From contig JBAYUW010000001.1 of assembly GCA_041674925.1 (NCBI GenBank), forward strand, positions 5,967-69,966: DNA of 64,000 nt, written 5' to 3'. The notes under the pieces were generated by a model. It saw only the letters and a list, made by a program, of their open reading frames with translations. It searched no databases and was not told where the DNA came from. The DNA comes from Minisyncoccota bacterium (GTDB taxonomy: Bacteria; Patescibacteriota; Minisyncoccia; Phycocordibacterales; GWA1-40-21). Made by a program: the position numbers and the translations under genes. This document shows positions 5,811 to 57,845 of the stretch, piece after piece (positions within the stretch are counted from its first letter, which is position 1; every line of letters starts with the position of its first letter).

Positions 5811-8387
5811 ATGGAATCCATGGAAAATAGTAACAACATGCCTAGTCATTCAGAAAAACCAAAAGACCCTGAAAAGAAAGCTGAAGAAAAAGAGAGGTAT
5901 AATCCTTTTGACAAGGAAAAGTATTGGCAAGATTTTTGGGAAAGGGAAGGTGTATATCGATTTAATCCTGAACAACCAGGGCCGCTTTATACAATAGATA
6001 CTCCACCACCGACTATTTCTGGGGCGCTCCATCTAGGGCATATTTTCTCTTATACTCAAGCGGAGGTTATTACTCGATTTAAAAGAATGCAAGGAGCCAA
6101 TGTTCGTTATTCGTTCGGCCTCGATAATAATGGTTTACCGACAGAACGATTAGTGGAAAAAGAAACAGGGGTCAGAGGCGGAACTGTAAGTTTGGAGGAT
6201 TTTACCAAGACTTGCGTTGAGATTACTGATCGTTATAAACATCTTTACGAAAATTTATGGAAGTCTATCGGTTTAAGTGTTGATTGGAGACTGGAATATT
6301 CAACAATCTCTCCGGAAGTTCAGAAAATATCTCAATCCACTTTTAAGGAATTATATGAAAAAGGGGTGATTTATACAAAAAATGCTCCAGCCCTTTATTG
6401 TACCGAGTGCCACACCTCTTTTGCTCAAGCGGAGAAAGAGGATAAGGAGAAAGAGTCAGTTTTTTACGATCTATCATTTAAAATGGAGGACGGACAGGAA
6501 TTAGTTATCGCGACAACTCGTCCAGAATTGTTGCCTGCCTGTAGCGCTGTATTTGTGCATCCAGACGATCAAAGGTTCAAAGATTTGGTAGGTAAAAAAG
6601 TGACTACACCTTTAGGTCAAGAAGTTGAAATTATGACTGATGAAAAAGTTGATAAGGAAAAAGGAACCGGCGCTGTAATGTGCTGTACTTATGGAGATGA
6701 AACCGATATTTATTGGGCAAAAAAATATAATCTTACCGAAAGAGTTGTTTTAAACCGTGACGGTAGATTTTCCGGAGTTGCTGAAATACCAGAATTAGAT
6801 GGTAAATCAATCAAGGAAGGAAGAAAAATTATTGTCGAAAAATTAAAGGCTGATGGATTAGTGAGAAAAGAGCAACCCATTACGCATAATGTTGACGTTC
6901 ACGAAAGATGTGGCACGCCAGTCGAATTTCTACCTACCACTCAGTGGTTTATGAAAATACTCGATATGAAAGATCGAATGCTCGAGGCAGGGAATCAAAT
7001 AAAATGGCATCCGCCGTATATGCAGAAAAGATATGAAGAATGGATAACTGGTCTTAAATGGGATTGGTGTATTTCAAGAGAAAGATTTTACGGAATACCA
7101 ATACCAGTATTTACTTGTGATAATTGCGGGAAGGTTGAAATTCCGGAAAAAGATAAGTTACCTGTTGATCCAAAAGCGGAAGAAATTCACGATTGCACGG
7201 ATTGTGGTAAAGGAAAAATGATTCCAGAAAGGAGTGTCTTAGATACTTGGTTTACTTCAGCTTTGTCACCGGAGGTGAATAATAGCCATCCTCTAAACGG
7301 CAATCTTAATGGCAAGTTATACCCAATGTCTATGAGGCCCCAAGCTCATGATATTATCAGAACCTGGGCCGTGTACTCCATTCTTATGGGATTATATAAT
7401 CACAATGAAGTTCCATGGAAGGATTTGATGATCTCTGGCCATATTTTAGTTCAAAAGGGCGAGAAAATAAGTAAGAAAACCGGTGGGGGAAAGTATAAAC
7501 CAGAGGAACTGATTGCCACACAATCGGCAGATGCCGTTAGATATGCCATGAGTGGGACATCTCTCGGTAAAGACTCATACTTTGACGAAAAAGAGGTTCA
7601 GAAAGGTAAGAAATTATTTAACAAACTTTATAATGCCGGTAAATTGGTATTGAGTAAATTAGATGACTTTGATCCAAAAGTGGAAGTCAAAAATGAAGAC
7701 CTTGAAGCGATTGATAGATGGATTCTCGATAGATCGACCGAAACAGCTGATAGAATGGCAGAGGCGTTTGCCGATTATGAGTTTGCCCAGGCGCGCCAGA
7801 TATTCGAAGACTTTTTCTGGAGCGATTTTTGTGATAACTACTTAGAAATAGTTAAAAAAAGATTAGCAATTGAGTCGGATGGAGATAAAAGTAAATTGTC
7901 TGCACAGTTCGCTTCTTACAATTGTTTCCTCAATGTTATCAAAATGGCTTCGCCGTTTGTTCCACATATAACAGAAGAAATGTTCCATGCTCAAATTACG
8001 AAGGTTGGGACTGGTGAAGATATAAGGTTATCTGTTAAATCAGAGAGTGATAGTGGTTATTTCTCAACTAATGAAGGTGCCAAGAGTGTACATAATACCA
8101 AGTGGCCGTCATCAGATGTTGAATATTCAGATGGTCAAAATAACGAAGCAGCTAAATTGGCTCTGACGGTTATAGCTGAAATTAGAAAATACAAAACTGA
8201 TAAAAAAATAAAATTTAACACCCCAGTATTAGTATTAAAAATAATATGTTCTCAAGAACAAAAAGACAAATTACAGGGTTTTGCGGAGGATTTAGCTTCT
8301 GTATCAAAGGCCGAAAGATGTGAAATTATAGCAACAGAAGGCACTGGTCCGGTTGTTGAAATGGAGATTGCGAGCAACGAGCCTTAA
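5811..8387 (+). CDS. valS: valine--tRNA ligase (type-2/archaeal-actinobacterial-like class Ia aaRS)
   Basis: IDTPPPTISGALHLGHIFSYTQAEVITRFKRMQG...GLDNNGLPTE (HIGH region of type-2 ValRS), editing domain, WCISRERFYGIPIP, and a KMSKS-like KISKKTG. Confidence 0.8.
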   Translation: MESMENSNNMPSHSEKPKDPEKKAEEKERYNPFDKEKYWQDFWEREGVYRFNPEQPGPLYTIDTPPPTISGALHLGHIFSYTQAEVITRFKRMQGANVRYSFGLDNNGLPTERLVEKETGVRGGTVSLEDFTKTCVEITDRYKHLYENLWKSIGLSVDWRLEYSTISPEVQKISQSTFKELYEKGVIYTKNAPALYCTECHTSFAQAEKEDKEKESVFYDLSFKMEDGQELVIATTRPELLPACSAVFVHPDDQRFKDLVGKKVTTPLGQEVEIMTDEKVDKEKGTGAVMCCTYGDETDIYWAKKYNLTERVVLNRDGRFSGVAEIPELDGKSIKEGRKIIVEKLKADGLVRKEQPITHNVDVHERCGTPVEFLPTTQWFMKILDMKDRMLEAGNQIKWHPPYMQKRYEEWITGLKWDWCISRERFYGIPIPVFTCDNCGKVEIPEKDKLPVDPKAEEIHDCTDCGKGKMIPERSVLDTWFTSALSPEVNNSHPLNGNLNGKLYPMSMRPQAHDIIRTWAVYSILMGLYNHNEVPWKDLMISGHILVQKGEKISKKTGGGKYKPEELIATQSADAVRYAMSGTSLGKDSYFDEKEVQKGKKLFNKLYNAGKLVLSKLDDFDPKVEVKNEDLEAIDRWILDRSTETADRMAEAFADYEFAQARQIFEDFFWSDFCDNYLEIVKKRLAIESDGDKSKLSAQFASYNCFLNVIKMASPFVPHITEEMFHAQITKVGTGEDIRLSVKSESDSGYFSTNEGAKSVHNTKWPSSDVEYSDGQNNEAAKLALTVIAEIRKYKTDKKIKFNTPVLVLKIICSQEQKDKLQGFAEDLASVSKAERCEIIATEGTGPVVEMEIASNEP

Positions 8388-8418
8388 AGGTTTTTTGCTG
8401 TAATACAATAAATGATAA

Positions 8419-11209
<2,791 letters not shown>

Positions 11210-15015: not shown

Positions 15016-15522
15016 ATGAAGAAAGACTCGCTTGGGAAAATTTTTATTGGCGCTGATCATGCTGGTTTCAAGTTGAAAGAAAATTTGGTTATTTATTTAG
15101 AAAAGCTTGGCTATGAGGTGATCGATTGTGGGGCGCATCGTTATGATGAATTTGATGATTATCCAGATTTTGTTTTGCCGGTTGCGCAAGCAGTTTCTAG
15201 TCATCCAAATTCAGCTCGTGGAATTGTAATCGGTGGTTCCGGGCAGGGTGAGGCGATGGCGGCGAATCAATTTCCGAATGTGCGTGCGGCCTTGTTCTAT
15301 GGTAATAAAATTTTTGGCAGTACCGATATTATTAAATTATCCCGTCAGCACAATGATGCTAATATTTTATCTCTAGGTGCGCGATTTATCAGTTTAGGTG
15401 AAGCGAAAGATGCTGTGCGAGTTTGGCTCAAGACTCCTTTTTCTTCAGACTATAAATATATTCGTCGCATCAAAAAGATCGAGAAAATTTTACGGGAAAT
15501 TCGTTTAAATAAGAATTTTTAA
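15016..15522 (+). CDS. rpiB: ribose-5-phosphate isomerase B (RpiB/LacA/LacB family)
   Basis: IFIGADHAGFKLKE, GIVIGGSGQGEAMAANQFPNVRAAL, NILSLGARF. Confidence 0.88.
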   Translation: MKKDSLGKIFIGADHAGFKLKENLVIYLEKLGYEVIDCGAHRYDEFDDYPDFVLPVAQAVSSHPNSARGIVIGGSGQGEAMAANQFPNVRAALFYGNKIFGSTDIIKLSRQHNDANILSLGARFISLGEAKDAVRVWLKTPFSSDYKYIRRIKKIEKILREIRLNKNF

Positions 15523-28141: not shown

Positions 28142-30775
28142 ATGCGTTATTTTTCCAAATATAATCCAAAATCTTTTTTTGTTGTTGGTCTAATTATTTT
28201 TGCGTTAAGCTTTTTTCTATCAAGTAGTATTTTTGCTGAAGGTCCGGGTTGTACTGACCCTTTGGCAATCAATTACAATGCCACTTCGACTATCGAAAAC
28301 GGTACCTGTACCTATCCGACTTTAACTGTTTCGACCTTAGGATCGCAATTACCGTCATTTGAAACTCCGATGAATCTTGATTTAGGAGGAGCTTTTACTT
28401 TTCAAACAGATGAAGGGTCGGTTGTTGTTAATGAAATAACCATCAAGCAGGTTGGATCATTTCCAATTGAATCAATAGGTGATGTAGAACTCATTTATGC
28501 CGAAAGCTCTGGTGGTGTTTGTGAAGACGTTGCGCCTAGTGGATCCAGTTTGGGAGGCGGAAATTTCGAAGAGGGTAATATTGTGACGATAAATAATGGT
28601 GAACCGATGACCGTTAGCACCATTAAAGTCTGTCTTTATGTTGTCTATAATACTTTACCCGACTCGACCGAAGATTTGCTTGGTTATTCAATTGATTTTG
28701 AAATTTCAACAGCCGAAGATATTGTTTTGTCGGCCGCTTCAGCCAACATTGAGATGAACGCACCGCTTAATATATCCGGTGTCAGTATTTTAACTGATGG
28801 ATCCATTACTACTTCATTACTATCATTAAAAATGGCTGATGAGACCAAAGACCCAACCGTTTTTTATTTGAAAGATGATTCAATTTGGAAAAAAGCGGGT
28901 ACTGGTACATCTACCCGTCTTACTAATTCGAATCTAATTGTTCAAGCTTTGGATTTTGAGAGATTAACTCGCTCGATTGGTGAAGGAATTGTGAGGATGT
29001 CGCTAACTATGTCTAATGTGGCGACTGGCACACCAGCTAGTTATCTAAATTTTGCTAAAACTTATACTACAACCGCCAGCACCCGCTCTAATATTTCAGG
29101 CTCATCAGTTACCTCGGTTCACACTGAAATTCTGCCAGTAATTATTTTGTCTGGAACGGCTAGTACGACAATTACTGTTGGTGATTCATACACTGATGCC
29201 GGAGCAACCGCGGTTGATGCTCTTGGTGTAAATATCACAAGTCTGATTGTGACTGGTGGTTTACCAATTAGTACGGTCGCGACTGGCACTCATCAAGTTA
29301 CTTACAATGTCACCGATGCTTATGGTAACTCCGCCACTCCAAAGACTCGAACCGTCACCGTTATCGCTTCTGAAACTGTACCCGACGCTCCAACTATCGG
29401 CACCGCTACTGCTGGTAATGCTACTTCAACCATCACTTACACCGCACCAGGTAATGATGGCGGTTCTGCTATACTTTATTATACAGTCACTTCTTCTAGT
29501 ACTGGAGCAGTTATTTCAGCTACAACTACTTCTTCCACAACAGCTACATTAACTGGCCTAACAAACGGCACCGCCTATACATTTAGTGTAAAAGCGACCA
29601 ATGCCATCGGTACTAGTGCTTCATCTTCAGCTTCAAATCCTGTTACTCCTGCAACAGTTCCCGGAGCTCCAACAATCGGTACCGCGACTGCTGGTAACGC
29701 TACATCAACTGTCACTTACACAGCTCCAGTTTCTAATGGAGGCTCACCTATACTGTATTATACAGTTACTTCAAATCCCGGAAGTATTTCTGCGTCGACT
29801 ACCAGTTCAACAACTGCAACTGTGACTGGTTTAACCAACGACACCGCTTATACCTTTACTGTTACCGCAACAAATGCCGCCGGAATCTCTACCTCATCTT
29901 CGGCTTCAAACTCTGTTACTCCAACCGCTCCAGCAACTTTCATGGTGGCCACTTGCCCAGGTACTGAAACAAATGATGGAGATTATAAAGTATGTAAATT
30001 TACAAGCTCAGGAACATTTACTGTTACCACATTAGGTGATGGCCTGGTAGATGTATTAGTTGTCGGTGGTGGCGGTGGTGGAGGTGGATATAATTACGCA
30101 GGTGGTTCAGGTGGTGGTGGTGGTGGTGGATACACGTCTACTACAAGTCTATCAATTTCTCTGGCGGCTCATAGTGTCACCGTCGGTGCAGGGGGAAGTG
30201 CTGGATCAAATGGAGCCCATGGAAACTCGGGCGGTGCTTCTTCTTTCGGAAGTTACATTTCTGTCTTAGGTGGAGGTGGTGGTGGGCGTAGTCCATTAGT
30301 AGCTGAGCAAGCTCCGTCTGGTGGTTCAGGTGGAGGGGGTGGTGGAAAAAGTGGATCAAAAACATCAACAGGTGGTGCTGGTACGTCTGGTCAGGGTTAT
30401 GCTGGTGGTACAGGAAAAGGATCCGTTAACAGTGGAGATGGTGGTGGTGGAGGAGGAGCTGGCGGTGCTGGGCATTATCAAGCTGGTTATGCCAATGTAG
30501 ATGGAGGAGCTGGTAAGGCTAATAGTATCACTGGTACTTCACTTTATTACGCTGGTGGAGGGGGAGGAGGAGGTGTGTATATCGCCGGAGGATTAGGCGG
30601 TTCAAGTGTTGGCGGACGCGGTTCAGGGCGTATGGAAGATTTGAACTCTTCAACTCCAACCGCTAATCGTGGAGGTGGAGGTGGAGGTGGAGCGCAGGAC
30701 GATAGTCCTGCCGTTTGGAGACCCCCATCATCAGGTGCTGATGGAGTCGTTATTATTCGGTATAAATACAAATAA
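28142..30775 (+). CDS. large secreted surface protein: N-terminal beta-rich region, Ig-like (DUF5011/HYR-type) domain, 2 x fibronectin type III, C-terminal glycine-rich domain
   Basis: Signal/anchor FFVVGLIIFALSFFLSSSIFA. The Ig-like segment is GDSYTDAGATAVDA...GTHQVTYNVTDAYGNSA. Two 93-aa FN3 repeats read PTIGTATAGNATST.TYTAP...LYYTVTS...TGLTN.TAYTF.V.ATNA.G. A GGGGG-rich tail ends in DGVVIIRYKY. Confidence 0.8.
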   Translation: MRYFSKYNPKSFFVVGLIIFALSFFLSSSIFAEGPGCTDPLAINYNATSTIENGTCTYPTLTVSTLGSQLPSFETPMNLDLGGAFTFQTDEGSVVVNEITIKQVGSFPIESIGDVELIYAESSGGVCEDVAPSGSSLGGGNFEEGNIVTINNGEPMTVSTIKVCLYVVYNTLPDSTEDLLGYSIDFEISTAEDIVLSAASANIEMNAPLNISGVSILTDGSITTSLLSLKMADETKDPTVFYLKDDSIWKKAGTGTSTRLTNSNLIVQALDFERLTRSIGEGIVRMSLTMSNVATGTPASYLNFAKTYTTTASTRSNISGSSVTSVHTEILPVIILSGTASTTITVGDSYTDAGATAVDALGVNITSLIVTGGLPISTVATGTHQVTYNVTDAYGNSATPKTRTVTVIASETVPDAPTIGTATAGNATSTITYTAPGNDGGSAILYYTVTSSSTGAVISATTTSSTTATLTGLTNGTAYTFSVKATNAIGTSASSSASNPVTPATVPGAPTIGTATAGNATSTVTYTAPVSNGGSPILYYTVTSNPGSISASTTSSTTATVTGLTNDTAYTFTVTATNAAGISTSSSASNSVTPTAPATFMVATCPGTETNDGDYKVCKFTSSGTFTVTTLGDGLVDVLVVGGGGGGGGYNYAGGSGGGGGGGYTSTTSLSISLAAHSVTVGAGGSAGSNGAHGNSGGASSFGSYISVLGGGGGGRSPLVAEQAPSGGSGGGGGGKSGSKTSTGGAGTSGQGYAGGTGKGSVNSGDGGGGGGAGGAGHYQAGYANVDGGAGKANSITGTSLYYAGGGGGGGVYIAGGLGGSSVGGRGSGRMEDLNSSTPTANRGGGGGGGAQDDSPAVWRPPSSGADGVVIIRYKYK
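29378..29926 (+). repeat. tandem 279-nt (93-codon) FN3-encoding repeat, 2 copies
   Basis: Copy 1 starts GTACCCGACGCTCCAACTATCGGC at 29378 and copy 2 starts GTTCCCGGAGCTCCAACAATCGGT at 29657. Both are in frame and roughly three-quarters identical by eye. Confidence 0.8.
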
Positions 30776-36916: not shown

Positions 36917-36922
36917 TAAACT

Positions 36923-36945
36923 AGCCTTATTTTATAAGGTTTTTT
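36923..36945 (+). terminator. gyrA terminator hairpin
   Basis: AGCCTTAT-ttt-ATAAGGTT followed by TTTTT. Confidence 0.6.
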
Positions 36946-36964
36946 AAATATATCTAAATTTACC

Positions 36965-36993
36965 TTGACTTCTTATCTATTTGGGTGTATAAT
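36965..36993 (+). promoter_or_regulatory. conserved promoter module (copy C) driving GC-rich cassette B
   Basis: cCTTGACTTcttatctATTTGGGTGTATAAT: TTGACT, 17-nt spacer, TATAAT. About 26/31 identical to the modules at 56266-56294 and 57198-57226. Confidence 0.7.
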
Positions 36994-37054
36994 AGCAAAT
37001 AGATTGGGGTGTTTGAAAATTAGTACATGTGGCGATGCCACGGAGGATTAAGTC

Positions 37055-37519
37055 ATGACAAGACTGATGTTTTGGTCCTTGGTAACCTTGCTGGGAGGCG
37101 GGATGCTCGTCCTTGGTTTTATCAAAAAGAAAAACTGGCGGGCCCTTATGCTTTTCGGAGCCTTGTTTTTTATGGTGGGCGTACAGGTAATAGAATTTTA
37201 CCTCGAGCCCAAAGTATCACCAGTGAAGAATCAAGTTCAAATCGAGGCAGAAGATGGTTTTTTTGGCCTCGGCTATCTTCCGGTGGTGAGTAACAGCTAC
37301 TGCAAGTATAGTGGCGCGCATATGATCACCGTTGTGAATACCAACGATCCTGCTTTCCGAGCAGACTGTGTTGTTCGGGAAGAAGCAGAACATGATTCGA
37401 TCGTGTATCTGGCTAATGGAGAAGCGGTGGCTTATGTCGGTTTCCGACTTCTCGGTTCCGAGAGCAACAAGGTTTACTTCGTGTTGCGCGATGCCTATCG
37501 TCTGTACCCACTCAAGTGA
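37055..37519 (+). CDS. hypothetical 2-TM membrane protein, GC-rich ORFan (cassette B)
   Basis: GGAGG at 37042-46, 8 nt before the ATG. TM helices FWSLVTLLGGGMLVLGFI and ALMLFGALFFMVGVQVIEF, then a beta-rich soluble domain. 29/60 G+C at 37381-37440. Confidence 0.6.
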   Translation: MTRLMFWSLVTLLGGGMLVLGFIKKKNWRALMLFGALFFMVGVQVIEFYLEPKVSPVKNQVQIEAEDGFFGLGYLPVVSNSYCKYSGAHMITVVNTNDPAFRADCVVREEAEHDSIVYLANGEAVAYVGFRLLGSESNKVYFVLRDAYRLYPLK

Positions 37520-37536
37520 CACACCTGTTCCTCTCG

Positions 37537-37576
37537 AGCCCTGCCTAGCATTTCGGTGCGAAGCGGGGCTTTTTTT
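37537..37576 (+). terminator. GC-rich intrinsic terminator of cassette B
   Basis: AGCCCTGC...GCGGGGCT 8-bp stem followed by TTTTTT. Confidence 0.7.
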
Positions 37577-37659
37577 ATTGTAATTTTCTTAAACTGCCCC
37601 GTCTTTAGGAAATGAGGTCGGGAGGTGATTTTGAAAGTCTGTTGTGGTATAATAATCCC

Positions 37660-38187
37660 ATGTTCTCTGATCCGGAAAATAATATTCGACAACTATCTTT
37701 AGTCGATGGTATGCATGTGGCTGATTTTGGTTCGGGCTCAGGTTTTTATAGTCTAGCAATTGCCAAAGCCGTCGCTCCAACTGGGCGAGTTTTTGCTGTC
37801 GATATTCAAAAAGATTTATTGCAAAAGTTGAAAAACGGTGCGAAGCAAAGTCATTTAAATAACGTTGATATTATCTGGGGTGATTTAGAGCATTTAGGTG
37901 GCACAAAACTGCGAGAAAATTCGATGGACGCCGTGGTGGTCGCTAATCTCTTTTTTCAGATTCAAAATAAAGACGGATTATGTTTAGAGATTAAGCGAGT
38001 TTTGAAACCAAAAGCCCGCGTCTTGGTAGTTGATTGGTCTGCATCTTTTGGTGGTATTGGTCCTCAAGAAAATGATGTCGTGCCAAAAATCAACATGACG
38101 ACCTTGTTTCATGATCATGGTTTTACTTTGGATCGCGAAATCGCCGCCGGCGCCGAGCATTATGGTTTGGTTTTTAGAAAAAATTAA
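37660..38187 (+). CDS. class I SAM-dependent methyltransferase
   Basis: Motif I VADFGSGSGFYS, VFAVDIQ, and motif IV-like VVVANLFF. The ORF is open from 37612, but TGGTATAAT (37645-53) lies 6 nt before ATG 37660. Confidence 0.7.
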   Translation: MFSDPENNIRQLSLVDGMHVADFGSGSGFYSLAIAKAVAPTGRVFAVDIQKDLLQKLKNGAKQSHLNNVDIIWGDLEHLGGTKLRENSMDAVVVANLFFQIQNKDGLCLEIKRVLKPKARVLVVDWSASFGGIGPQENDVVPKINMTTLFHDHGFTLDREIAAGAEHYGLVFRKN

Positions 38188-39506: not shown

Positions 39507-39875
39507 ATGAAATCATTTTTTATAACTTTTTTAGTTTTAGTAATGCCGCTTACTGTTTTGGGAGCGACAGGCCTTGTCACTTGTGATGGGTCAGATTGCG
39601 ATATCGATGCTTTCATCAAAATGATCAACAATATCATTAACTGGATTATTGGAATTTCGATTACAATCTTTGCGATTTCTTTGATCTGGGGTGGTTTTCT
39701 CTATATGACCTCGGGGGAAAATACTGGTAATAAAGAAAAAGCCAAAACTATCATCTGGTCAACCCTGAAAGGGTTTGTTATAATATTAGTTGCTTGGGTA
39801 ATTGTTTACACAATATTAAATACTCTAGTTAAAGATCCAGGCTCCAACACAATATTTAAATTCCTGGAGGAATAA
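39507..39875 (+). CDS. VirB2/TrbC-like 'T4SS pilin' family small membrane protein (paralog 1)
   Basis: Signal peptide, then GLVTCDGSDCD, then TM, short charged loop (SGENTGNKEKAK) and TM. This matches the CPR pilin-like family architecture. Confidence 0.65.
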   Translation: MKSFFITFLVLVMPLTVLGATGLVTCDGSDCDIDAFIKMINNIINWIIGISITIFAISLIWGGFLYMTSGENTGNKEKAKTIIWSTLKGFVIILVAWVIVYTILNTLVKDPGSNTIFKFLEE

Positions 39876-39888
39876 AAATCAATATTTT

Positions 39889-40245
39889 ATGAAAACATTT
39901 TTCAAAAAACGCCTAATAATAAATCTACTTTCTTTTGTCATTCTCTTTTTACCAATGTTTCTATTTGCGGCCGAGACGATACATAACCCCTTAAAATCAA
40001 ACGATGTCAACGCTATTCTTGGAGATATTATGAAACTTGTGGCTACGGCTGGAGCAATTGTGGTCGTGTTTTTCATAATTTATTCTGGTTATAAATTCGT
40101 CACCGCGCGCGGTAATGAAAGCGAGGTGACAAAAGCCAAGGATATCTTCTGGGCTACAATTATTGGTGGGGCGATTTTATTAGGAGCTGATGTGATTGCC
40201 ACCGTGGTAATCAACACGGTTAGAACTACCACGGGAGCTCAATAA
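39889..40245 (+). CDS. VirB2/TrbC-like small membrane protein (paralog 2)
   Basis: Signal peptide ...LFLPMFLFAAE, TM, loop ARGNESEVTKAK, TM. Confidence 0.6.
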   Translation: MKTFFKKRLIINLLSFVILFLPMFLFAAETIHNPLKSNDVNAILGDIMKLVATAGAIVVVFFIIYSGYKFVTARGNESEVTKAKDIFWATIIGGAILLGADVIATVVINTVRTTTGAQ

Positions 40246-40265
40246 TTTTTAATTAATAAAATAAA

Positions 40266-40562
40266 ATGAATACACCGGATAATTTCAAAGAGCTAGTCCA
40301 AGATACTTTCATTGAGGGTATTTTAAATCCAATCGTGCCTTTTTTGATTGGTTTGGCGGTCGTTATGTTTATTTACGGAGTCTTACTCTTCATGTTTAAT
40401 GACGGTGGGGAAAAGAGGGAAGAGGGTAAACAATATATGATCTGGGGCATTGTCGGTATCTTTGTCATGGTTTCAGTTTGGGGTTTGGTAGCGATTTTGA
40501 CCGGTACTTTTCAATTAAACAATAGCGTACCGACAATCCAAATGAACGTACCGAATCTATAG
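40266..40562 (+). CDS. VirB2/TrbC-like small membrane protein (paralog 3, no obvious signal peptide)
   Basis: TM, loop NDGGEKREEGKQ, TM. Shares WGI.GIFVMVSVWGLVAIL with paralogs 4 and 5. Confidence 0.55.
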   Translation: MNTPDNFKELVQDTFIEGILNPIVPFLIGLAVVMFIYGVLLFMFNDGGEKREEGKQYMIWGIVGIFVMVSVWGLVAILTGTFQLNNSVPTIQMNVPNL

Positions 40563-40649
40563 GGGTAGTTGCCACTTTTTTATAATAAGTTATAATTACA
40601 CAGTAAATAAAAGGTCGGATAATAAAATTTTACCAATAAAAATAATTTC

Positions 40650-41018
40650 GTGAAAAAAATAGCAAGTTTAATCTCAGCCATAGTTTTGCTTCTCCCAATG
40701 ATTGGATCAGCCGCGGTGAACTCAACTTATTTTACCGATGTGATCAAGGAAGGATCAAAGGTGTTGAATGATCTGGTGATTTTCTTGGTTGCCTTGGCTG
40801 TCGTCTGGTTTATTTGGAATGTGATTCGTTACACCCTAGCCGATGATGAGGAAAAAAAAGGAGCAGCTAAAATGCAGATGGTTTGGGGTATTATCGCTAT
40901 TGCGGTCATTGTTTCGGTCTGGGGCTTGGTAGCTATCTTAAGAAATATGTTTGGGGTTGATAATAATAGTGCTATTCCCACCAGAGAGATAAATAGTATG
41001 ATTCCTCAGGTTCGATAA
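40650..41018 (+). CDS. VirB2/TrbC-like small membrane protein (paralog 4)
   Basis: GTG start. Signal peptide, then ALAVVWFIWNVIRYT-LADDEEKKGAAK-...WGIIAIAVIVSVWGLVAIL. Confidence 0.6.
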   Translation: MKKIASLISAIVLLLPMIGSAAVNSTYFTDVIKEGSKVLNDLVIFLVALAVVWFIWNVIRYTLADDEEKKGAAKMQMVWGIIAIAVIVSVWGLVAILRNMFGVDNNSAIPTREINSMIPQVR

Positions 41019-41053
41019 TGTTTATTAATTTATTAGTTTTAATTAAAAAAAAT

Positions 41054-41410
41054 ATGAAGAAGTTTGTGAAAGTTATTGCCGGTTCCGCTTGGGCTCTGCC
41101 ATTTGTGGCTTTAGCTCAAGAAGCTAACGCTAGTTATATTAGTTCGCTTATTGATAGTGCCAAGACTGTCTTGGACCAATTGGTGGTCTTTTTAATTGCT
41201 TTAGCTGTCGTTTGGTTCATTTGGAACGTCATTCGCTATACTATGTCCTCTGATGAAGAGAAGAAAGGTGCGGCAAAGGGTCAGATGATTTGGGGTATTA
41301 TCGCTATTGCGGTTATTGTCTCAGTTTGGGGTTTGGTCGCCATCTTACAAAGCCTATTCGGAGTTGGTAATACCAGCGCTGGTGATGTCGGTGGTCTTTT
41401 GCCTCAATAA
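41054..41410 (+). CDS. VirB2/TrbC-like small membrane protein (paralog 5, recent duplicate of paralog 4)
   Basis: The core is identical to paralog 4 over ALAVVWFIWNVIRYT, DEEKKGAAK and WGIIAIAVIVSVWGLVAIL. The DNA differs mostly at synonymous sites. Confidence 0.6.
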   Translation: MKKFVKVIAGSAWALPFVALAQEANASYISSLIDSAKTVLDQLVVFLIALAVVWFIWNVIRYTMSSDEEKKGAAKGQMIWGIIAIAVIVSVWGLVAILQSLFGVGNTSAGDVGGLLPQ

Positions 41411-41412
41411 TT

Positions 41413-41676
41413 ATGAATTCCTCATCATCAATCGGAGATTATAACACCCTTTTGATTAGTATTTTAGAGAATATTGGTAATCCTCTTGTTACCCTAATGT
41501 TGGGTGTGGCGGTGGTTTACTTTCTCTACGGAGTATTCGTCTTCGTCCGTAATGCCGAAAGTCCGGAAAAAAGGAAGGAGGGTGGAATGCATATACTTTT
41601 TGGAGCTCTGGGTCTATTCATTATGATCTCGGCCTATGGAATTATAAATTTGATTTTGGGCACGATGGGGAAATAG
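41413..41676 (+). CDS. VirB2/TrbC-like small membrane protein (paralog 6)
   Basis: TM, loop NAESPEKRKEGG, TM. The N-terminus resembles paralog 3. Confidence 0.55.
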   Translation: MNSSSSIGDYNTLLISILENIGNPLVTLMLGVAVVYFLYGVFVFVRNAESPEKRKEGGMHILFGALGLFIMISAYGIINLILGTMGK

Positions 41677-53265: not shown

Positions 53266-53369
53266 ATATAATATAAGCCGTTGATAAATGATTATAAACG
53301 TGCTATCGTTTTACAAGAATTCAGTGAACATTAACGTGCGGAGTGAGCGAAATTGAGAGGAGGAATGCG

Positions 53370-53834
53370 ATGATACGTATATTGTTGGTGTCGATACTCT
53401 TCGCGGCCATGGTCTGCTTTTGCACGGTGGATGACGAATTCACCGTTAGGGACCGAGATGACGCACAGGTAATCTTTGGGATCAGTATTCCCATGAGTAC
53501 TGAGGAAAAAGAGGCAGCTCGTCCCGTAGTGATGGACGTCATACTCGAGCGACGCGAAATCACTCGCAGTAGTTGTAAGGAGTATAAAGCTCTGGCCAAT
53601 CTCGCGTCCACTCAAAAGGTCGAATCGGTTGAGGTGGCCTTTTCCGATATGAGTCGCCTTGAACAACGAGAGAAGGAACTGGATATTTCGTGGTCAGCAT
53701 ACAGTGAGTCATATGACCGCTATCTTCGTTCCGTCTCGTTGGCCCATCACATGGGGTTCAAGGAGGAAGCTCGATATTTCGGTTATTGCACCGAAGATGA
53801 TGGGTTTAAGGTGACCGAATACGTTGCCTTCTGA
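53370..53834 (+). CDS. hypothetical exported/anchored protein, GC-rich ORFan (cassette C)
   Basis: GAGGAGG at 53357-63, 6 nt before ATG 53370 (the ORF is open from GTG 53343). N-terminal hydrophobic MIRILLVSILFAAMVCFC. 34/60 G+C at 53401-53460. Confidence 0.55.
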   Translation: MIRILLVSILFAAMVCFCTVDDEFTVRDRDDAQVIFGISIPMSTEEKEAARPVVMDVILERREITRSSCKEYKALANLASTQKVESVEVAFSDMSRLEQREKELDISWSAYSESYDRYLRSVSLAHHMGFKEEARYFGYCTEDDGFKVTEYVAF

Positions 53835-53852
53835 ACGGAACAGGTCTTTCTC

Positions 53853-53881
53853 GTGGCGTGCCAAACGGTGCGCCACTTTTT
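53853..53881 (+). terminator. GC-rich intrinsic terminator of cassette C
   Basis: GTGGCG-tgccaaacggtg-CGCCAC followed by TTTTT. Confidence 0.7.
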
Positions 53882-54657: not shown

Positions 54658-55674
54658 ATGAAAAATCAAAAAGGTTTTATTGTGCCAGTACTCGTCGCTA
54701 TTATCGCTGTTTTAATAATTAGCGGTGGGGTATATCTTTATCAAAATAAAAAAGTCGAAGTGCCAGGAATAAATATTAATAGTAATATTCCGACATCGAC
54801 CAAGACTTATAAAAGTGATAAATTTTCTCTCCAGTTTCAATATCCAGCAGAACTATCTGTTAGTGAAAACTCTCAGAAAATTATTTTAAATCATTCTATT
54901 CCTTATAAACACCAAGATCCTTGTGATTTTAAAGGCGACGGCACCAGTCTCGATAATCTCACAGATTTTAATGTCTCCCTACAACTTTTTAATCAAAACA
55001 TAAGTGATTTACTACAAAGTAGCGCATCACCCGGAGAAAGCTATGTTTACAGTAATCCTTTCAAAACTAATTCTTTAAACGGCTATAAAATTCAACTTGG
55101 AGTGGAAGGTTGCGGTAATTATACATATTATTTTCCTACCTCCATTAATCAGACATTGGTAATTACACGCTCACTTATCACCGAGCTTGGTGACGCGATT
55201 ACAAATAAACAAGAATATTTAAGCCTTCCTGGTGTCATCTTACCATCACAAGAAGAGATGATGATGAATCAGATTTTAGACTCTCTCAAGTTTACACCAA
55301 CCAAAACCGCGGTCGAATTTGTGGAGCTAATCTTGTATATTCAAGACAAAACCCAAGTTGCAACCAACAGCTGTAGTATTACTCACCAGGTTGTTTACAA
55401 AATTCCTAAGACTACCGCGGTGGCCGACGCTTCATTAAGGATTCTTTTCAATGGGGAATTATTCAGCTATGGTTCTTATAAATCAGTAACTATTGTAAAT
55501 GGTGTGGCTAAAGTCATGCTGGAAAGTAATTTGACAAAGGCAGGTAAACCAATCGGTTCACTGAGTAGCTGTGAGAGCTCACATTTGTTATCTGTTTTGA
55601 GGGATACGCTTACGCAATATGATTCTATAAAATCTGTCGAATTGCTTTCCCCGCAGGGTTCTATTCAGTTCTAA
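54658..55674 (+). CDS. hypothetical membrane-anchored protein (possible C-terminal GerMN-like domain)
   Basis: TM FIVPVLVAIIAVLIISGGVYL. The C-terminal ~110 aa (LYIQDK...YKIPKTTAVADASLRILFNG...SVLRDTLTQYDSIKSVEL) resembles GerMN, which is a weak by-eye call. Confidence 0.4.
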   Translation: MKNQKGFIVPVLVAIIAVLIISGGVYLYQNKKVEVPGININSNIPTSTKTYKSDKFSLQFQYPAELSVSENSQKIILNHSIPYKHQDPCDFKGDGTSLDNLTDFNVSLQLFNQNISDLLQSSASPGESYVYSNPFKTNSLNGYKIQLGVEGCGNYTYYFPTSINQTLVITRSLITELGDAITNKQEYLSLPGVILPSQEEMMMNQILDSLKFTPTKTAVEFVELILYIQDKTQVATNSCSITHQVVYKIPKTTAVADASLRILFNGELFSYGSYKSVTIVNGVAKVMLESNLTKAGKPIGSLSSCESSHLLSVLRDTLTQYDSIKSVELLSPQGSIQF

Positions 55675-56276
55675 TGATAAAGAAATCTAAATCCTACACC
55701 ATCGGTATCGACGAAGTTGGTCGTGGGCCAATCGCTGGACCAGTTGCCGTCTGTTCTTTGTGTTTGGGGCCGAAATTCAAAAAGAGTAATTTCCAGAATT
55801 TTCGTGACTCCAAGAAACTTTCGCATCTTCAAAGATTAAACTGGCTGGAGAAAATAAATATTGAAAAAGAGAAAGGAAACATTTTTTACAAAGTCTGTCT
55901 GGAGAGTAATGAAGTCATTGATCAAAGAGGTCTAACTTTTGCGATAAAACGCGCGCTCAGTAATTCTTTAAATAGTTTAAAAATCAAACCAAAAAATTGC
56001 GAAGTTCTTTTGGATGGGGGATTGAGGGCACCGATAGAATACATAAATCAAAAAACAATTATAAAAGGGGATGAAAAAGAATTGGCGATTGCGCTGGCTT
56101 CGATTGTGGCGAAAGTTACTCGTGATGCTTTGATGGTGAAATTAGCCAAGAAATATCCAGGGTACGGTCTAGAGAAGCATAAGGGTTATGGCACCTCAGC
56201 GCACTATAAAGCCTTGAAAAACAAGGGTCTTTCTCCAATACATCGCAAGAGCTTCCTCAAGAAGCTTGACTTTTAA
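55674..56276 (+). CDS. rnhB: ribonuclease HII
   Basis: IGIDEVGRGPIAGPV, DSKKLS, ASIVAKVTRD, GYGLEKHKGYGT..H. The last 5 codons and the stop (AAG AAG CTT GAC TTT TAA) lie inside the conserved promoter module. Confidence 0.9.
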   Translation: MIKKSKSYTIGIDEVGRGPIAGPVAVCSLCLGPKFKKSNFQNFRDSKKLSHLQRLNWLEKINIEKEKGNIFYKVCLESNEVIDQRGLTFAIKRALSNSLNSLKIKPKNCEVLLDGGLRAPIEYINQKTIIKGDEKELAIALASIVAKVTRDALMVKLAKKYPGYGLEKHKGYGTSAHYKALKNKGLSPIHRKSFLKKLDF

Positions 56277-56304
56277 CCAATTTGGGTGTATAATTGTGGG
56301 TAGA
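56257..56304 (+). repeat. direct repeat copy 1 (promoter module; partner at 57189-57236)
   Basis: The core AAGCTTGACTTTTAAcCaATTTGGGTGTATAATTGT (56262-97) is 34/36 identical to 57194-57229. About 42/48 identical over the extended span. Confidence 0.85.
56266..56294 (+). promoter_or_regulatory. conserved promoter module (copy A) driving GC-rich cassette D
   Basis: TTGACT (56266-71), 17-nt spacer, TGTATAAT (TATAAT at 56289-94). Confidence 0.7.
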
Positions 56305-56372
56305 GTAGCTGGCCTAGCTATTTGGATTACATAACGAGCAATTGTATTTTTGTCGGCCGCAAGCTTACAAAA

Positions 56373-57119
56373 ATGTCCGCAAGACTATGGTCCCGAAAAA
56401 AGGCAGAGAAAGAGATAGTTGACATGAATGCTCATGGCGAAAATATCGACGACTTGCTCGGTCTGGTTGATCCCGAACTCGTGCGATCGTACGGACGAAA
56501 CCGTCTAAGTGATGGAATGAATCTGGCGCAGGTTAACGACAAGTATAAGGAAGTCGAACAGAAACTGGTGGTTCTTGCACGTCGACACAAAATGCTTTTA
56601 CTCTGTGTTGTCACAATGCTTCCCATCAGTTTTCTTGCTTCTGTGTTCATGAAATCACCTGGCCTCGGCATTGTGTTGGCGTGCATATTGGCGCTCGGTT
56701 CGAAATTCATTGACAATCTATATGTTCGGGCAGAAGATCGGATCGGCACACTTCGGCACTCACTCGTGGCGGATCTCAAGACCTTCAGGAATGCTACGGA
56801 GGCGCTGAAGAGCCCGATCGGGCGGACGATGCGTGAGTATACGGCGGCCTCGACCCGTGACAATTTGATCACGTGCGCGGTTCGGATACTCGACGCGGAA
56901 GCCAAGCTCGATGAGGTGCGCTTCATGACGAATCGGCGGTTGCATGATCTGGTCCACTACAGCAACTGGTTGATGCGTTGCCAAGAGGAGCAGAAGAAGA
57001 TCGAGGAGGGAATCAAGGTCTTCGGTCTGAAGTTTGATCGTTCGGAGATATTCGCGGAGGCTCGCAAGCACAACGCGCGCGTCGACGCCGAGATTCAAAA
57101 AGGGATCGACGGTAAGTAA
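56373..57119 (+). CDS. hypothetical 2-TM membrane protein, GC-rich ORFan (cassette D)
   Basis: The ORF is open from TTG 56322; the first ATG is 56373. The central hairpin MLLLCVVTMLPISFLASVF / GLGIVLACILALGSKFI is flanked by helical cytoplasmic domains. 36/60 G+C at 56761-56820, versus 19/60 at 55861-55920 in rnhB. Confidence 0.55.
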   Translation: MSARLWSRKKAEKEIVDMNAHGENIDDLLGLVDPELVRSYGRNRLSDGMNLAQVNDKYKEVEQKLVVLARRHKMLLLCVVTMLPISFLASVFMKSPGLGIVLACILALGSKFIDNLYVRAEDRIGTLRHSLVADLKTFRNATEALKSPIGRTMREYTAASTRDNLITCAVRILDAEAKLDEVRFMTNRRLHDLVHYSNWLMRCQEEQKKIEEGIKVFGLKFDRSEIFAEARKHNARVDAEIQKGIDGK

Positions 57120-57139
57120 GTCCAGCATCGCTGGCATTT

Positions 57140-57168
57140 GGGTACCTCTTCACGGAGGTGCCCTTTTT
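57140..57168 (+). terminator. GC-rich intrinsic terminator of cassette D
   Basis: GGGTACCTC-ttcac(g)-GAGGTGCCC followed by TTTTT. Confidence 0.8.
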
Positions 57169-57188
57169 AATACTTAAATTTGAATATT

Positions 57189-57236
57189 TTAAAAAGCTTG
57201 ACTTTTAATCCATTTGGGTGTATAATTGTATGTAGA
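57189..57236 (+). repeat. direct repeat copy 2 (promoter module; partner at 56257-56304)
   Basis: Contains AAAAAGCTTGACTTTTAA, the same string that encodes the rnhB C-terminus and stop in copy 1, but here it is non-coding. Confidence 0.85.
57198..57226 (+). promoter_or_regulatory. conserved promoter module (copy B) driving the GC-rich Nudix cassette E
   Basis: TTGACT (57198-203), 17-nt spacer, TGTATAAT (TATAAT at 57221-26). Confidence 0.7.
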
Positions 57237-57298
57237 AAGATAAGAACAGGTTTCCTGTGTGGGAGGCCTTTGACAGCAATTCCAATTGGAGATTCAGC

Positions 57299-57817
57299 AT
57301 GAATAACGTGATTGAGAAGCCGAGTCATTTTTCGGCCGGACTTTTTCTGCACCGACGTACCGATGGTAGTGGTCTCTATGACACGATCGGCGTCACCAAG
57401 CATCGGTTTCCGGATGGCGTACAGATGCCTGGTGGCACGAATCGACGTTGCCTCTGGGAAGTGCCAGAGATGACCTTGGAGCGCGAGTTCGCGGAAGAGA
57501 CCGGATATCGTCCGGTGTCTTATAACCTCCTGCTGTCTAGGGAGTTTGGGGATGGAGGGCATACCCAGAACTTTTTCGTCATCAAGCAGGCTGTCGGTCA
57601 CTTTAACGGTCCACGGACTTTTACTGAGACTGATGGAGAGATGGTGGAGGTTCGGATTTGGGAACTCGGTGAATTTCATCGCCACCTCTGCCCGACCCAT
57701 CGGCCAGCCTTTCTGAAGGCATGTCAGGTGTTGATCCGCGTAGACGTGTCGTTTCGCAGGAATTATCCCGAGATCTGCGATGATGTCCGCGCCGCCGAGT
57801 ATCGGCAAGAGTTCTGA
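57299..57817 (+). CDS. Nudix hydrolase, GC-rich (cassette E)
   Basis: The Nudix box at 57431-57508 is GGTNRRCLWEVPEMTLEREFAEETGY (Ex7REUxEExGU intact). GGAG lies 7 nt before ATG 57299 (the ORF is open from GTG 57257). 34/60 G+C at 57421-57480. Confidence 0.75.
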   Translation: MNNVIEKPSHFSAGLFLHRRTDGSGLYDTIGVTKHRFPDGVQMPGGTNRRCLWEVPEMTLEREFAEETGYRPVSYNLLLSREFGDGGHTQNFFVIKQAVGHFNGPRTFTETDGEMVEVRIWELGEFHRHLCPTHRPAFLKACQVLIRVDVSFRRNYPEICDDVRAAEYRQEF

Positions 57818-57845
57818 ACTAATCGAAGGGAGAGTGTGAGCGAAT

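Follow-up and report, generated by a model that had tools for sequence, protein, structure and literature searches.

The 729-bp segment that separates gyrA from a methyltransferase gene in this genome is probably an autonomous accessory cassette, akin in type to the morons and the PeSL (promoter-early stem-loop) elements of phages, which was acquired at a core-gene hotspot and which makes use of a portable promoter module resident in the clade. The segment occupies positions 36917 to 37645 of the window, by which we mean the whole stretch of 64,000 nucleotides that was analysed. The window has a GC content of around 39% and encodes gyrA, gyrB, eno, obg, rnhB and trmD together with six tandem T4SS-pilin paralogues. 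Its GyrA sequence places it among the freshwater Paceibacteria/Parcubacteria of the CPR, with 88-93% GyrA identity to the best GTDB species representatives. The genomes of the CPR/Patescibacteria are tiny and streamlined, and to our knowledge little is understood of how these organisms come by new surface and accessory genes.

The segment and its component parts, several of which are predictions from the sequence, are as follows.

36917 to 37645, plus strand: inserted segment of 729 bp, running from the gyrA stop codon to the -10 box of the methyltransferase promoter
36923 to 36950, plus strand: weak AT-rich stem-loop (AGCCTTAT/ATAAGGTT) followed by T6, predicted by folding, at the 5' edge of the cassette
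36963 to 36993, plus strand: promoter module CCTTGACTTCTTATCTATTTGGGTGTATAAT, with the -35 box TTGACT at 36965-36970, a 17-nt spacer that includes ATTTGGGTG, and the -10 box TATAAT at 36988-36993
36975 to 37004, no strand assigned: perfect 9-bp inverted repeat ATCTATTTG/CAAATAGAT, which brackets the -10 box
37000 to 37054, plus strand: predicted 5' leader of about 55 nt, with the hairpin GTGGC-GAT-GCCAC at 37029-37041 and the adjoining Shine-Dalgarno (SD) sequence GGAGG at 37042-37046
37055 to 37519, plus strand: orf154, an ORFan of 154 aa with a predicted N-terminal two-helix membrane hairpin, a KKKNWR loop and an acidic C-terminal domain of about 100 aa
37536 to 37576, plus strand: GC-rich intrinsic terminator, consisting of a hairpin (37536-37571) and T7
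37577 to 37653, plus strand: end of the insert, leading into the methyltransferase promoter, with TGgTATAAT at 37645-37653, 6 nt before the ATG at 37660, of leaderless type

In folding calculations the upstream hairpin (36923-36945) reaches -6 kcal/mol (z -1.3) and the hairpin and T7 of the strong 3' terminator -20.9 kcal/mol (z -2.3). An AT-rich stretch separates the upstream stem-loop from the promoter module. Hairpin/T-run structures thus flank the orf154 unit on both sides, in agreement with a preliminary description of this DNA, which had seen an insulated unit ending in a GC-rich terminator. The same description had taken the upstream hairpin for gyrA's own terminator. A hairpin is indeed present there, albeit a weak one, but it is missing from the relatives that have no cassette, and it therefore belongs to the insert and not to gyrA. 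An extended -10 had also been ascribed to the promoter; here, the TG at -14/-13 abuts TATAAT directly, which differs from the canonical TGnTATAAT arrangement. The SD sequence does lie 8 nt upstream of the ATG at 37055, as first reported, but the leader, originally given as 61 nt, is predicted to be about 55 nt as transcribed, since the 61 nt are counted from where the -10 box stops up to the ATG. No Rfam family matched the leader or the cassette, with a single sub-threshold sX13 hit at E 0.78. The 9-bp inverted repeat around the -10 box is a possible candidate operator, and is missing from the other two module copies in the window (56264 and 57196).

An ENA MEGAHIT contig shows gyrA, cassette and methyltransferase gene in the same arrangement with 100% identity, and so does a 1.5-kb Logan contig from SRR6484325, which spans all three components and both junctions; the 91-kb contig of the window is carried in ERZ27247358. 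As three assemblies, one of them a short Logan contig, are identical across the cassette and both of its junctions, mis-assembly is excluded and an assembly chimera was ruled out.

The order of the surrounding genes is kept across the relatives: an MBL-fold gene, a small ORF, gyrA, the methyltransferase gene and a gene for a solute-binding protein. In the five closest relatives (L001 and L003-L006, with 89-93% aa identity in gyrA) the junction is free of any cassette, and about 12 nt separate the gyrA stop codon from (G)GTATAAT, after which come 6-8 nt and the ATG of the methyltransferase gene. Positions 36917-37645 are therefore extra DNA in the window. The -35 box of the relatives' methyltransferase promoter (TTGTCT) lies inside the last codons of gyrA and the -10 box lies close to the start, and the methyltransferase mRNA is therefore of the leaderless type. 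In the window this -35 box has been displaced by the insert, and a TG extended -10 (TGgTATAAT, 37645-37653) is found instead. The start context reads GGTATAAT-ATG, and an empty site would have the gyrA stop codon joined directly to it; plausibly, the TG supplied by the tail of the insert compensates for the displaced -35. No target-site duplication, terminal inverted repeats or flanking direct repeats are found at 36917/37645, and the first two of these findings ruled out the insertion of an IS, a MITE or a transposon. An integron cassette was likewise ruled out, as the unit has its own promoter and, on the 3' side, no structure other than the hairpin and T-run of its terminator; there is no attC-type site, nor an integrase in the annotated parts of the contig.

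Different cassettes occupy the same junction in other relatives, namely L007, L010, L012/L021, L020, L017, L027 and L028. That of L007 is a 683-bp GC-rich membrane ORF with a GAGGAG SD, L020 has a membrane ORF, and L012 and L021 have a homologous promoter-SD-ORF-terminator unit. In L010 the unit lies between palindromic direct repeats of about 90 bp, and in L017, L027 and L028 the inserts are larger. The presence of different small cassettes in these relatives makes the gyrA-methyltransferase junction a hotspot. Short junctions without orf154 are found in the more distant L011, L013, L014, L018, L019, L025, L026 and L029 as well. No mobility genes were found in the annotated parts of the contig, and the neighbourhood of the cassette contains no phage genes and gave no PHROG matches.

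The cargo protein is an ORFan in every collection that was searched. Among 5.8 billion clustered proteins orf154 matched only itself, and an exhaustive HMMER search of 1.84 billion representatives again returned the protein itself, the other matches being multi-stretch and of the transmembrane type, with E values of 2e-7 or weaker. There was no tblastn match in phages and plasmids and no PHROG family, and Pfam gave just two sub-threshold matches, both to the TM region. None of the three cassette proteins matched a PADLOC model of anti-phage defence, and no donor for any cassette ORF was found in the phage, plasmid, protein or viral collections. A single-sequence AF2 model has confident helices only at residues 3-24 and 28-50, with the C-terminal domain at pLDDT below 50; the two helices accord with the 2-TM ORFan that had been proposed from the sequence. 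From the KKKNWR loop and the acidic tail, the positive-inside rule would make orf154 an N-out/C-out membrane hairpin with an exposed C-terminal domain, and such a protein may have a surface, host-interaction or exclusion-type accessory role. The gene is also unusual in composition, as was first noted, with a GC content of 0.48 and a GC3 of 0.53 in comparison to around 0.39 and 0.36 for native genes.

It is very improbable, given these observations, that orf154 represents an ancestral gene kept here and lost elsewhere, or that it is an artefact in the form of a chimeric assembly or a non-coding, ORF-like stretch. If the genome of the window is sister to L001-L006, then a single deletion in their common ancestor could explain the absence of the gene, and no homologue is available to prove coding constraint on orf154. 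However, the more distant relatives also have short junctions without the gene. An artefact is likewise at odds with the difference in GC3 from native genes, with an SD at ideal spacing, with a confidently predicted TM hairpin and with the three identical assemblies. That the ORF might be conserved at this position in relatives had been raised at the outset as the finding that would count against acquisition, but the closest relatives have no such ORF between gyrA and the methyltransferase gene.

Native and cassette genes differ in their start regions. An SD core of 4 nt precedes only 1 of 50 native genes, and a 5-mer none of the 50, whereas in 17 of the 50 a -10-like box lies close to the start codon, its end 4-12 nt away; the 20 bases upstream have a mean GC of 0.22. 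Among the four GC-rich cassette genes of the window (starts at 37055, 53370, 56424 and 57299), on the other hand, three have the SD 4-mer, two the 5-mer and none an adjacent -10 box. The claim that the gene is built to different translation rules is thus upheld by these counts. SD-like motifs are rare in all 80 loci from relatives, whatever their GC. The native pattern of starts has its counterpart in the leaderless 'group C' class of GeneMarkS-2 (PMC6028130), and the literature that we searched contained no account of SD usage in Patescibacteria. Two regimes of initiation thus appear to coexist in one genome, in which the core genes have no SD and a short leader or none, and the accessory cassettes have a long leader and a canonical SD.

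The promoter of orf154 belongs to a small family. Within the window, the only matches to CCTTGACTTCTTATCTATTTGGGTGTATAAT at 21/31 or better are at 57196 (27/31) and 56264 (26/31), both at the rnhB locus, and these two agree with each other at 29/31. As a background, all 47 promoter-like 31-mers of the window with a 17-nt spacer were compared pairwise. Every pair outside the three module pairs scored 19 or less, bar one at 23, and in the spacer alone the module pairs agree at 13-15 of 17 positions, with all other pairs at 11 or less. The module scores thus lie far above the background, and therefore beyond the normal spread of promoters in the window; the third promoter copy near gyrA that had been reported is borne out, and the reservation that its likeness might fall within that spread does not apply. 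The genome has three copies in about 91 kb, with none further in the roughly 27 kb of contig beyond the window.

The module also lies at the 3' end of rnhB, in the junction with rpmF, in three related genomes. These are L178, whose contig record is JGI 3300014205 (Ga0172380) and which, as L177/L178, is a sibling genome from the same sample as the window with a 91% identical RNase HII; L179, with 80% identity; and L183, which as L183/L184 is the same MAG as L001. Their copies match those of the window at 26-30/31. In each of the three, the module heads a GC-rich (0.52-0.61) Nudix-like gene that encodes 211-225 aa and whose GGAG SD is conserved, and in L180 and L181 the unit of module and gene at this locus is missing entirely. 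A related promoter and leader precede a GC-rich, lipoprotein-like ORF that adjoins gyrA in L045 (GyrA 70%). Across the seven instances that were compared, including those of L178, L179, L183 and L045, identity ranges from 21 to 30 of 31. The module can be written as the pattern TTGAC-N9-WTTTGGGTGTATRAT; no copy at 25/31 or better occurs in 934 kb of relatives' gyrA neighbourhoods. The gyrA copy matches those of L178 and L183 at 26/31, on a par with the other copies in the window, and its first transcribed bases (AGCAAATAGAT) are akin to those of L179 (AGTAAACAGAT). As it is no closer to the copies in its own genome than to those in relatives, it is a diverged member of the family and not a fresh intragenomic duplicate. 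The module appears, from its distribution, to be a resident element of the clade as opposed to a foreign signature, and is best read as a portable boundary element of about 45 bp that extends from the -35 box to about +12.

It is at the rnhB locus that the behaviour of such an element can be followed most closely, by alignment of the window to the DNA of L178. The features of this locus are as follows.

56264 to 56294, plus strand: module copy 1, which overlaps the rnhB stop codon and is orthologous to the copies in L178, L179 and L183
56295 to 57190, plus strand: inserted orf231 cassette (ORF and terminator), between the two module copies, with no alignable counterpart in L178
56424 to 57119, plus strand: ORFan encoding a 231-aa membrane protein, within the orf231 cassette
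57196 to 57226, plus strand: module copy 2, followed by a leader orthologous to that of L178
57299 to 57817, plus strand: Nudix-like gene of 172 aa, its coding part replaced while the leader before it and the terminator after it are conserved

Positions 55008-56294 are 87% identical to L178, and this homology stops precisely with the -10 box of module copy 1. The orf231 cassette that follows (56295-57190), whose terminator folds at -24.7 kcal/mol (z -5.8), has no counterpart in the DNA of L178. Homology resumes at 85% across module copy 2 and its leader (57191-57279), breaks again about 20 nt before the Nudix-like ORF, which is unalignable (57280-57841), and returns from 57842, at the terminator. 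This pattern reveals one repeat-bracketed insertion and one replacement of an ORF between conserved regulatory flanks. The 172-aa protein of the window has a Pfam NUDIX match at E 6.6e-4, which is under the gathering cut-off, and just 22% identity to the 211-225-aa family of the relatives; NCBI labels one protein of this genome 'MAG: NUDIX hydrolase [Candidatus Paceibacterota bacterium]'. The edges of the module are thus the breakpoints of homology, with its copies at the boundaries of indel and replacement, as in PeSL elements, and recombination through the module appears well supported at this locus. It is not demonstrated at the gyrA locus, since there is only one clear copy there and the stretch of 23 nt ahead of the methyltransferase -10 box agrees with the module at just 11/23 by manual count.

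The relatives' Nudix-like genes retain their high GC despite divergence to 44-54% aa identity, and high GC alone is therefore no proof of recent import. High GC and the use of SD sequences look like lasting traits of this class of accessory gene, and not just the leftovers of a recent acquisition. They may persist through selection, through GC-biased gene conversion at a hotspot of recombination, or because the genes are replaced again and again from an outside pool.

A regulon could also generate a family of like promoters with no mobility involved. In such a scheme a regulator, or a specialised contact of sigma factor or RNA polymerase, would bind the ATTTGGGTG spacer, selection would keep the copies alike, and orf154 would be a lineage-specific recruit. 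Although non-coding, the spacer after the rnhB stop codon has been kept in L178, L179 and L183, which implies a function, and at gyrA a palindrome particular to that copy surrounds the -10 box; convergence is possible too on the 20 specified bases TTGAC-N9-ATTTGGGTGTATAAT, which equal a multi-copy early promoter of T4-like phages. We nevertheless consider a regulon an unlikely explanation, though one to be taken seriously. It would leave unaccounted for the absence of orf154 and orf231 in relatives, their atypical composition and lack of homologues, and the breakpoints of homology that fall exactly on the module edges at rnhB, and the likeness of the copies runs past any plausible operator into the first transcribed bases.

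The phage promoters just mentioned were found in IMG/VR, where TTGAC-N9-ATTTGGGTGTATAAT occurs at 70 loci; with N10 in place of N9 there are none, and the strict module pattern gave no match in viral contigs. In metagenomes, the N10 form has at least 21 matches in very diverse organisms with a GC of 0.25-0.65, which would show only that ATTTGGGTGTATAAT occurs in strong promoters generally. One family of the IMG/VR matches is coding sequence (EIWVYN), and most of the others belong to uncultured T4-like phages, as judged by matches to RIIA/RIIB, DNA ligase and NAMPT. In these contigs the motif is present in 2-6 copies per locus, each before a small SD-led ORF, with the consensus TTGACAaTAAATggaTTTGGGyrTATAAT; this is how PeSL elements are arranged in the descriptions of Arbiol et al. 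and Comeau et al., cited below. The DNA of the contigs has no match in cultured phages apart from tRNAs. The core common to the module and these phages may reflect convergence on an optimal sigma-70 promoter or actual exchange.

Such a core raises the prospect that the cassettes are remnants or captures of a phage whose early genes carry the promoter, the SD and the terminator. The repeated phage promoters and their small SD-led ORFs fit with such an origin, as do the architecture of the cassette, which equals that of a moron or PeSL unit, and the SD sequences that the cassettes use and the host core genes do not. Against this, tblastn with the cassette proteins gives no match among 50,697 phage genomes, nor among the viral loci and T4-like contigs that were fetched. 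The T4-like phages have a GC of 0.29-0.47 (mostly 0.36-0.44), in comparison to 0.48-0.54 for the cassette ORFs of the window and higher values still for the relatives' Nudix-like genes. There are no prophage genes beside the cassette, and in relatives the module has been kept beside rnhB by vertical descent. We know of no T4-like phages that infect CPR bacteria. Overall, a phage origin seems improbable.

The cassette, in our favored reading an acquired unit under a resident module, shares most with the PeSL elements of T4-type phages (Arbiol et al. 2010, PMC2839356; Comeau et al. 2014, PMC4122927). As in those elements, a stem-loop (36923-36945), a sigma-70-like promoter (36965-36993) and an SD (37042-37046) lie directly upstream of a small ORFan, several conserved copies are present per genome (three here, at 26-29/31), and the copies mark the boundaries of insertion, deletion and replacement between close relatives. 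The rnhB-locus cassette lies between two copies, as expected from the integration of a mini-circle, and the 20-base promoter core is literally common with the multi-copy promoters of uncultured T4-like phages. In contrast, the setting is a Paceibacteria chromosome (gyrA, rnhB, trmD, rpmF) and not the hyperplastic region of a T4-type phage, and for this reason the cassette works like a PeSL without being a member of that group. The copies are also few, numbering three in about 91 kb, they do not have the stem-loop in common, and the cassettes are GC-richer than the genome.

Several other systems are similar in some respects. Like the morons of lambdoid and other (pro)phages (PMC3594210), the orf154 unit is autonomous, with its own promoter and terminator, an atypical base composition and a position between genes that are adjacent in relatives; morons, too, carry accessory cargo, often a membrane or surface protein. 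Unlike morons, the unit has no prophage context, and unrelated cargos come under a common promoter module. Chromosomal hotspots of horizontal transfer and single-gene islets also harbor varied small insertions at one core-gene junction with no adjacent mobility gene, but the cassettes described here have a clade-conserved promoter module and a mode of initiation, with long leader and SD, that the core genome does not use. Integron cassettes resemble them as single-ORF units that gather at a fixed site and whose cargos are mostly ORFans; here, however, each unit has its own promoter and terminator and the units are scattered over several junctions.

The likely working of the cassette can be outlined from these features. 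The stem-loop and T-run at the 5' edge of the insert would stop read-through from gyrA, and the housekeeping RNA polymerase would use the near-consensus, sigma-70-type promoter to produce a monocistronic mRNA from around 37000 to 37576. This mRNA would be translated by SD-dependent initiation, unlike the SD-less core genes with their short leaders, to give a small protein on a membrane hairpin with its loop in the cytoplasm and a C-terminal domain of about 100 aa facing outward. The short tail of the insert would then restore a TG-extended -10 for the leaderless-type methyltransferase gene. Cassettes in this genome seem to have been gained or swapped at or beside copies of the module, for which the likeliest route would be homologous recombination via conserved regulatory sequence, as proposed for PeSL.

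Promoter- and terminator-bounded ORFan cassettes have previously been described in phages, and here they are found in a CPR chromosome. They provide a concrete anatomy for the gain of genes without mobility genes, in which whole promoter-to-terminator units come to lie in the gaps from one essential gene to the next, and insertion and replacement have their limits at a promoter that the clade has conserved. If recombination does proceed as modelled, then a mechanism known to date from T4-type phages alone would also be at work in a bacterial chromosome. We would go further only tentatively, with the speculation that the Paceibacteria run an integrase-free, PeSL-like system in which the module of about 45 bp and the strong terminators act as the homology for inserting, duplicating and swapping GC-rich, SD-led ORFan cassettes of one gene each. 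Were this true, these genomes, with core genes that lack a leader or an SD, would contain a separately wired set of accessory genes, and the exact match of the promoter core would point to a pool of regulatory cassettes shared or exchanged between phages and ultra-small bacteria.

The core of the 31-nt promoter module that heads the GC-rich orf154 cassette, downstream of gyrA, is also found in uncultured T4-like phages (IMG/VR contigs L104-L173, e.g. L120, L130, L133, L142 and L150), an assignment based on the presence of RIIA/RIIB, DNA ligase and NAMPT. In these phages the motif TTGACAaTAAATggaTTTGGGyrTATAAT occurs in 2-6 copies per locus, and the copies stand before small SD-led ORFs. The exact 20 specified bases are common to the phage motif and the module of the window, and within the phage motif TTTGGG is strictly conserved at -20 to -15.

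The window and its contig harbor further GC-rich units, and a leader element recurs in relatives:

Window 53266-53880: fourth GC-rich single-gene unit, between a Band-7 gene and trmD.
L174 16200-18160: another GC-rich islet (GC 0.50-0.56), on the window's own contig, ~6-8 kb past the right end of the window.
Window 57248-57269: conserved hairpin AGGTTTCC-TGTGT-GGGAGGCCT in the leader of the Nudix-like cassette; also in the sibling genome L178 (~10640-10662) and in the relatives L179 and L183.

The first of these units encodes a lipoprotein-like ORF of 154 aa (53370-53834; GC3 0.55), which is preceded by the SD GAGAGGAGGAA and followed by a terminator that folds strongly (-18.7 kcal/mol). The promoter of this unit, TTGATA...TATCGT, differs from the module. 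The islet to the right of the window holds three SD-led ORFs, with the SDs GGAGAGGAGGAA, GGAGGAG and AAAGGAGC. Because two near-identical terminators, GGACCCGGGTGTGC...GGGTCCTTTTTTATTA, bracket a 62-aa membrane ORF, the repeated terminator serves as a cassette boundary in this islet.

The hairpin arms of the Nudix-like cassette leader read AGGTTTCCC/GGGTAAACCT in L183 and GTGGTTCC/GGAATCAC in L179, changes that are apparently compensatory. Rfam returned no match for the hairpin, which may act as a regulatory 5'-UTR element.

The junction between gyrA and the methyltransferase gene is also occupied in a relative, L010, by a small promoter-SD-ORF-terminator unit (7849-8679), flanked by two copies of a ~90 bp palindromic repeat (CTCGCATTTTAAAAAC...GTTTTAAAAATGCGAG), a further case of a cassette bounded by repeats. 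A second relative, L008, carries an AT-rich ORF after gyrA (6340-7702) in place of the usual methyltransferase, which by eye, from an NPPF motif, looks like an N6-adenine DNA methylase/type I R-M HsdM. On the CPR-like contig L101 (4327-5330), a TTGACA-N10-ATTTGGGTGTATAAT promoter precedes ~1 kb of GC-rich sequence (0.50-0.55 versus 0.42) with no convincing ORF, which may represent a structured RNA gene.

Elsewhere in the window, six tandem T4SS pilin paralogues (39507-41676; PF18895, E 1e-7 to 2e-10) lie immediately 3' of a solute-binding protein gene. An 877-aa surface protein with Ig-like, fn3 and Gly-rich domains is encoded at 28142-30775, with a GC3 of merely 0.26 despite an overall GC of 0.45. 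The unusual GC and GC skew at 29000-30500 are due to this gene, not to a foreign islet.

Native genes throughout the window have AT-rich upstream regions without an SD (e.g. at 15016, 26071, 33540 and 37660), and SD motifs are likewise rare in the gyrA neighbourhoods of 80 related genomes. A -10 box lies 4-12 nt upstream of the start codon in 17 of 50 native genes, a proximity that represents a leaderless or very-short-leader architecture.
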